A DNA stretch of 64,000 bases, taken from NCBI RefSeq assembly GCF_003018255.1, contig NZ_CP027440.1; one strand, written 5' to 3'. Positions within the stretch are counted from its first letter, which is position 1, and the number at the start of each line of letters is the position of its first letter. A model generated the notes under the pieces. That model was not told where the DNA came from. It made no database searches and saw nothing but the letters and a program-made list of their open reading frames with translations. This DNA comes from Escherichia coli (GTDB lineage Bacteria; Pseudomonadota; Gammaproteobacteria; Enterobacterales; Enterobacteriaceae). The position numbers were made by a program, and so were the translations under genes. Below are positions 61,008 through 61,418 of this stretch, piece by piece.

Positions 61008-61418
61008 ATGAAAGTATGTCTGTATTTTATTTCCGTATTTTTTTCATCTTGCTGTATAGCTGATGTTTTCCATTATAGGATGCCTTTTCGCATCCAAACA
61101 TATTCCCCTGTCACTAAAAGTAAAATTGAAAATTTTGCAATAAAAGATGGTGCACAAAAATTATTACAGATAAATCGTGAGAAGTTATTAATGTTACTGA
61201 ACAGGTCTAGTAATGAGTGTTACCATTTTGATGATAAAAATGTTAGGATTTATATTATTGATGGTAAAGACAGATATTATATTGATAAAAACGGGGTGGT
61301 GTCATATGGCGTTCAAGATAATGTCATATGCTCTAATAATAAAATTAATGAAGATTCCATAGAAAAAATTTTATTAGAAGGGAATATTGACTTTTGGAAA
61401 AAACTGAAAATTAAGTGA
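61008..61418 (+). CDS. Putative Rhs immunity protein (RhsI-like), hypothetical
   Basis: 136-aa AT-rich ORF 57 bp downstream of the Rhs tip, with RBS AGGAG; assignment by position only. Confidence 0.5.
   Translation: MKVCLYFISVFFSSCCIADVFHYRMPFRIQTYSPVTKSKIENFAIKDGAQKLLQINREKLLMLLNRSSNECYHFDDKNVRIYIIDGKDRYYIDKNGVVSYGVQDNVICSNNKINEDSIEKILLEGNIDFWKKLKIK

Follow-up and report, generated by a model that had tools for sequence, protein, structure and literature searches.

The toxin/immunity pair VgrG2b-Cter/PA0261 of the Tpe/Tpi family joins a HExxH metallopeptidase, delivered by a type VI secretion system (T6SS) and toxic only in the periplasm, to an immunity protein that needs a signal peptide and DsbA (PMC6899460). 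Across Tpe/Tpi pairs, including A. baylyi Tpe1/Tpi1, the inhibitor is small and encoded just downstream of the toxin; a signal peptide, lipid anchor or transmembrane helix brings it to the periplasm, and it depends on disulfide formation (PMC6899460). Here we analyze a gene pair in a 64,000-nucleotide stretch of Escherichia coli contig NZ_CP027440.1 (assembly GCF_003018255.1), hereafter the window. In it a 136-amino acid (aa) open reading frame (the ORF) directly follows an rhs gene that ends in a putative metallopeptidase toxin tip. We conclude, with a probability of about 0.8, that the ORF encodes the cognate immunity protein of this tip, and that the protein is Sec-exported, possibly lipidated, and neutralizes in the periplasm a metallopeptidase that acts there.

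We regard VgrG2b-Cter/PA0261 as the closest mechanistic precedent, an analogue and not a member of the same family. The original paper classed the C-terminal domain of VgrG2b as DUF4157 (PMC6899460), whereas the window tip matches Peptidase_M91, if weakly. A later statement that VgrG2b carries an M91 domain (PMC8867033) was rejected in favor of the original classification. Delivery also differs, since Tpe/Tpi toxins travel with VgrG, PAAR or as cargo and the window tip travels with Rhs. Tpi proteins and PA0261 are recognized by a periplasmic signal and conserved cysteines; as judged by heuristics, the family of the ORF has a hydrophobic leader and, in its enteric members, a cysteine pair.

The toxin itself resembles another described group. 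Tox-HopH1 domains have HExxH and [DE]N motifs and are linked to RHS repeats and T6SS (PMC3482391), and the window tip shares both the motifs and the RHS-repeat association. The survey of Zhang et al. 2012 recorded no immunity family for Tox-HopH1 (its entry is '-'; PMC3482391), a gap that the family of the ORF would fill. The characterized relatives NleD and HopH1 are delivered by type III secretion and cleave proteins of the host; they are not antibacterial toxins, unlike the tip as we read it here.

Related loci have been described in E. coli and Salmonella. In Shiga toxin-producing E. coli (STEC) O22:H8 strain 154, RhsA (Ec154_02824/02825) has an M91 tip and a PAAR part split off by a premature stop, and the hypothetical gene Ec154_02823 is presumed to encode the immunity protein, with no detectable homology (bioRxiv 10.1101/2024.03.05.583533). 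Compared by description, this split PAAR part, M91 tip and hypothetical gene match the situation in the window. In Salmonella Dublin (S. Dublin), the PAAR-RHS-Peptidase_M91 protein SED_RS06335 and the downstream SED_RS06340 were assayed in competition (PMC8867033). The architecture of the pair is ordinary, and the immunity role of the ORF has already been predicted in print for E. coli, with a homologue lightly tested in Salmonella. The STEC prediction was purely positional, and the family, the export signal and the co-occurrence analysis are added here. What is new is the definition of the family, its predicted export signal, and its conserved pairing with M91/HopH1-like tips.

Results

The ORF and the toxin tip

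The first-pass annotation of this DNA had described a 136-aa AT-rich ORF with a strong ribosome binding site 57 bp past the toxin tip. Its coordinates, its GC content of 28.2% and its AGGAG Shine-Dalgarno sequence were all confirmed. The rhs stop lies at 60950 and the 57-bp gap is followed by the ORF on the same strand; no terminator-like site was found between tip and ORF, and a promoter/terminator scan gave background levels. The GC content of the ORF (25.5% at third codon positions) resembles that of the tip (35%) and contrasts with that of the GC-rich Rhs core (62%). Same-strand position, co-occurrence and co-divergence with the tip, and low GC content together place the ORF in the context expected of an RhsI immunity gene.

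The ORF is a real gene under purifying selection. Homologues in E. albertii are 67-71% identical to it, with a ratio of nonsynonymous to synonymous substitution rates (dN/dS) of 0.26-0.28 by the Nei-Gojobori method. An AlphaFold2 model computed from the family alignment is of the alpha+beta type, with a mean predicted local distance difference test score (pLDDT) of 89.4 and a predicted template modeling score (pTM) of 0.81.

By sequence, the upstream tip looks like a divergent branch of Peptidase_M91. Pfam PF14891 matches it weakly (independent E-value 9e-4, 20 bits); it matches 6 of 7 tips of the wider family at ≤1e-3, the best at 1.7e-6, and is a precomputed match for P0008. Every sequence in the tip alignment keeps HEMGH and YENP. 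The confident AlphaFold2 model of the tip (pLDDT 92) carries HExxH on a helix; botulinum neurotoxin light chains and Wss1 are its best folds in the PDB, all of them weak matches. The C-terminal domain of VgrG2b (6H56) was not among the top fold matches of the tip, and Pfam gave no DUF4157 match in it.

Pairing of the gene with related tips

How tightly are the two genes linked? Co-occurrence across genomes had been suggested as a check on the immunity assignment, and it holds at several depths: in complete E. coli genomes, in divergent pairs on unrelated contigs, and in identities that co-vary. A 1-kb query covering tip and ORF matched 180 of 5426 complete E. coli genomes, and the ORF alone matched the same number; in both searches every match was >99% identical over ≥80% of the query. 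There are therefore no complete E. coli genomes with only the tip or only the ORF; the two are adjacent in 180/180 genomes that have either, and no other ORF lies between them in the window or in these genomes. This set represents one nearly clonal module and says little alone. One complete genome, NZ_CP007394.1 (E. coli ST2747), has two copies of the module (H10/H28). The feature overlying one of them bears the label 'RHS repeat-associated core domain-containing protein', a hint that this copy is duplicated or orphan.

More informative are nine distinct tip/ORF pairs on unrelated contigs, in which a family member directly follows an Rhs gene, or an orphan Rhs fragment, with a homologous tip. 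The paired tips share K[VI].F.G..., HE[ML]GHA and the C-terminal DDG..MNNV..ENP.R..L..P.RM.Y*. Divergent homologues found directly downstream of M91-like tips are 25-42% identical to the ORF (Table 1), and at some of these loci the gene overlaps the stop codon of the tip. Among four enteric-type pairs, tip identities of 75/60/59/53/52/50% correspond to ORF identities of 47/42/42/37/32/29%, and the downstream protein diverges faster than the tip in every comparison, as is usual for immunity proteins. At the sequence level, such co-varying identities are the usual toxin/immunity signature.

An unnamed protein family

The first-pass annotation had found no family assignment for the ORF. That remains correct for curated libraries: there was no Pfam match even at E≤10, no meaningful NCBIfam match and no PADLOC match, and Imm57 (PF15596), considered because of the neighboring gene, did not match either. 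It does not hold more widely, since an unnamed homologous family exists. Searching 1.84 billion representative proteins by full HMMER, with a profile made from the mature domain, gave 39 matches at E≤1e-3. Members that are neither fragments nor repeat proteins are 110-155 aa long and share the motif [VI]YY[IV]PF.[VI][EQ]TY.P[VI]T...IE, followed by FD..VR and then YYID.NG. Three long matches that might have been toxin fusions were rejected as RTX-like or low-complexity repeat proteins.

None of 28 aligned members matches Pfam, and a search of AFDB50 returned uncharacterized proteins only. Sequence searches of the PDB with the family and tip profiles yielded noise or generic zincin matches only. 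For the ORF, a word-indexed protein search reached relatives in E. coli and E. albertii only; for the tip it found a single cluster. A second round that started from the family alignment gained little. RefSeq labels WP_000861664.1 'hypothetical protein', and the identical UniProt entry A0A0D8WIV1 bears the name 'Lipoprotein'.

A predicted export leader

The window protein has the leader sequence MKVCLYFISVFFSSCC|IAD. A strongly hydrophobic leader was called by hydropathy in 19 of the 21 family members that have an N-terminal extension. Several distant members have canonical lipoboxes (LTSC, LLSC, LFNC), and others have plain signal peptides. From these heuristics we infer that the family is exported. 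For the ORF protein itself, Sec export to the periplasm is our best reading of the sequence, and lipidation is possible. The enteric clade conserves a pair of cysteines, at mature positions 50 and 87, that probably form a stabilizing disulfide. The export signal, like the rhs frameshift and the E. albertii gene order described below, goes beyond the first-pass annotation.

A homologous pair tested in Salmonella

In the published competition assay, S. Dublin prey lacking both effector and immunity gene were recovered at a level 2.4-fold below wild type, and prey lacking the effector only were unaffected (PMC8867033). The module thus behaved like an effector with its immunity gene, although the effect was modest. 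Translation of the primer tails given in that work yields MGIPPRMKY* and RIYIYEDNH*, and the tails match contig L025 exactly. That contig carries P0021, which matches the family profile at E 2.8e-7, and on this sequence evidence the tested pair is therefore homologous to the window pair. Both comprise a PAAR-Rhs protein with an M91-like tip, ending MGIPPRMKY* in S. Dublin and LGLPARMKY* in the window, and the small gene downstream in S. Dublin is a member of the ORF's family with a hydrophobic N-terminus. The S. Dublin pair lies inside a T6SS island, whereas the window pair lies at the rhsA locus. Within positions 1-500 of L025, the family motif FPYSFRIQTYTPITRG is out of frame with the annotated SED_RS06340. 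A TAA stop also interrupts ...YIYEDNH*YFIDNKG, at the point where YFIDNKG follows in the family. P0022, a Salmonella variant that is intact, has ...YIYEDNNEYFIDNKG.

The candidate immunity gene of the first-pass annotation is thus supported by adjacency, by divergent pairs, by co-varying identities and by the S. Dublin competition data.

The rhs gene and its neighbors

The last 12 kb of the window are the E. coli selB-selA-yibF / rhs / yibH region, which puts the pair at the rhsA (yibF-yibH) locus; no T6SS genes lie near it there. The window rhs has a PAAR motif at its start (56803), a GC-rich YD-repeat core, a DPLGL motif and then the AT-rich tip. Relative to the intact allele in NZ_CP026723 (1380 aa), a TGCCC duplication shifts the frame, and the frame shared with the toxin tip opens after it, so that the PAAR N-terminus is detached from the shell and the toxin. 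Only 2 of the 5426 complete E. coli genomes contain the identical 76-mer spanning the duplication, and at least one of them, JNE23-011, has it at a different rhs locus. Provided that the duplication is real, the toxin of the window probably cannot be delivered. Because rhs is frameshifted, the ORF most likely serves only for defense here, against neighbors that carry the intact toxin.

Downstream of the ORF lie a Tlde1/LD-peptidase-type tip remnant and an Imm57 gene (Table 1), an orphan module separate from the M91 tip and the ORF. Tlde1 is an L,D-transpeptidase-like T6SS toxin domain, and the remnant matches its C-terminal part. Imm57 pairs with Tox-LD-peptidase and Tox-Caspase (PMC3482391), and the Imm57 gene here is an orphan immunity gene that belongs with the LD-peptidase remnant rather than with the M91 tip. 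The Imm57 protein has a signal-peptide-like N-terminus of its own.

Table 1. Features at the window locus and family members paired with tips at other loci
Feature	Location	Strand	Basis or remark
PAAR-containing N-terminal rhs fragment (MSGKPAARQGD...), 112 aa	56803-57141	+	ORF list; alignment to intact 1380-aa gene, NZ_CP026723
Rhs/YD-repeat core up to DPLGL cleavage motif	56916-60548	+	RefSeq 'RHS element core protein'
TGCCC tandem duplication, 5 bp, frameshifting rhs	56994-56998	+	sole indel relative to intact reference L001
C-terminal toxin tip, 133 aa, small zincin, HEMGH and downstream ENP, ending PARMKY	60549-60950	+	Peptidase_M91 / Tox-HopH1-like
Shine-Dalgarno AGGAG	60998-61002	+	5 nt upstream of the ORF ATG
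Candidate cognate immunity protein, 136 aa, WP_000861664.1	61008-61418	+	ATG at 61008, TGA ending 61418
Predicted export signal MKVCLYFISVFFSSCCI, lipobox-like FSSC	61008-61058	+	10-residue hydropathy maximum 2.55
Tlde1 / LD-peptidase-type toxin tip remnant, 91 aa, orphan fragment	61507-61782	+	Pfam Tlde1_dom PF10908, independent E-value 0.0013, model positions 66-107/120
Imm57 family immunity protein, intact	61787-62308	+	Pfam Imm57, E 5.4e-44; RefSeq annotation
P0009, 41% identity to ORF	L011-13		homologous tip directly upstream
P0010, 34% identity to ORF	L014		homologous tip directly upstream
P0011, 41% identity to ORF	L015-16		homologous tip directly upstream
P0020, 26% identity to ORF	L017-18		homologous tip directly upstream
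P0038, 25% identity to ORF	L020		homologous tip directly upstream
P0024	L022		follows degraded remnant of M91-like tip
P0021, Salmonella	L025		homologous M91-like tip directly upstream
Orphan pair, E. albertii	L003 4135-4419 (truncated tip), 4426-4833 (family member)		hidden Markov model (HMM) scan of all fetched loci

Discussion

How would such a pair work? The roughly 133-aa HopH1/NleD-like zincin tip would ride inside the PAAR-Rhs shell and be delivered by T6SS. The immunity protein would be synthesized with an N-terminal Sec-type leader, possibly a lipoprotein signal, and its mature alpha+beta domain of about 119 aa, probably stabilized by a disulfide, would reside in the periplasm. There it would bind and block toxin injected by sister cells. 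Export, neutralization by direct binding and an envelope or periplasmic target are what we infer: a predicted N-terminal export signal would place the site of action in the periplasm, and if the injected toxin is inhibited there, the target of the protease should therefore lie in the cell envelope.

Several observations weigh against this reading. The FSSC at residues 12-15 of the ORF is non-canonical at -3 when compared with the lipobox [LVI][ASTVI][GAS]C, and the leader calls come from hydropathy and motif heuristics. SED_RS06340, the homologue used in the competition assay, looks damaged or decayed, being frameshifted internally and stopped early, and the effect of its loss with the effector was only 2.4-fold. 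An anti-host role for the tip is possible, as its M91 relatives NleD and HopH1 act on eukaryotic proteins. The remaining difficulties come from E. albertii and from one short E. coli contig, and each bears on a different explanation of the gene.

In E. albertii, the close homologue of the ORF, 138 aa long, is the second gene after a tip that is only about 25% identical to that of the window and carries HELAH. A different, 149-aa signal-peptide protein lies between this tip and the 138-aa homologue, which is therefore not the adjacent cognate partner there, and in every E. albertii locus seen the homologue accompanies the HELAH-tip module. The motifs of the family can be aligned in register with the 149-aa protein, at an hhalign probability of only 40%; BLASTP against the ORF found nothing, and we do not count this protein as a family member. 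The E. albertii loci are toxin/immunity arrays (L008 1089-6349, L003/L004 3572-8417, L007 4759-8339). An ankyrin-repeat gene and an Rhs C-terminal fragment (4976-5725) followed by a 174-aa ORF are found in L003/4, and an Ntox28 fragment with CdiI_3 in L007.

This arrangement raises the alternative that the ORF is an orphan or non-cognate immunity gene, directed against a related tip of other strains or left behind by a lost partner. The frameshift in the window's own rhs and the presence of another orphan module at the same locus, the Tlde1 remnant with Imm57, fit the same idea. We nevertheless think it unlikely, although it survives best among the alternatives. No ORF intervenes in the window or in the 180 E. 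coli genomes, a family member stands directly after the tip in six further divergent loci, sometimes overlapping the stop codon, and the identities of tip and ORF co-vary. The E. albertii 138-aa gene we read as an orphan immunity gene kept after its tip was replaced.

An accessory role is also possible for that gene, and the ORF could more generally be an envelope protein that folds, activates or targets the toxin, or a linked passenger, and neutralize nothing. This is less probable again. Rhs toxins are loaded in the cytoplasm, so an exported protein could not chaperone the toxin of its own cell. Moreover, the gene persists next to tips that are degraded or truncated (L022, L003/4), as immunity genes typically do and helpers do not, and Salmonella prey without the module turned sensitive.

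Could the mature domain instead be Rhs cargo, a toxin or some other delivered domain? On this account the window copy began as a tip, was displaced, and gained a start codon together with a hydrophobic N-terminus. It is prompted by a 238-bp E. coli contig (L002 1-238; GCA_050586905.1, JBOBGT010000316.1) encoding a homologue about 80% identical to the ORF (P0007), found in two samples. It reads ...NPVQYIDPLGL|ADMFHYGMPLRIQTH..., the end of the Rhs core running straight into the first mature residue with the junction precisely at the cleavage motif, and has no toxin tip and no signal peptide. The immunity model leaves this fusion unexplained; it may have arisen by deletion or as an assembly artefact, or it may be an Rhs protein with an immunity-like cargo domain. 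We consider the cargo account improbable, as it rests on a single 238-bp contig. Of the other family members found, none is joined to a delivery domain, the family conserves its leaders, and on this account the M91 tip of the window would be left without any adjacent immunity gene. Finally, a chance open frame in AT-rich spacer DNA, favored only by the absence of a database family, can be dismissed: by our own estimate stops make up about 8% of random codons at the ORF's composition and an open run of 136 codons would arise with a probability of about 1e-5, and the family kept across distant bacteria, the confident structure prediction and the dN/dS already refute it.

A cognate, exported immunity protein therefore remains our preferred account of the ORF, and the general picture of Rhs toxin/immunity biology is unchanged by it. 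With the family profile, several dozen genes now called 'hypothetical' or 'lipoprotein' can be annotated and orphan immunity genes recognized. At 133 aa for the protease and 119 aa for the predicted inhibitor, both confidently modeled, the pair is small and thus tractable for structural work. The family gives a candidate partner and a likely compartment to the M91/HopH1-like Rhs toxins, whose characterized relatives are anti-host effectors.
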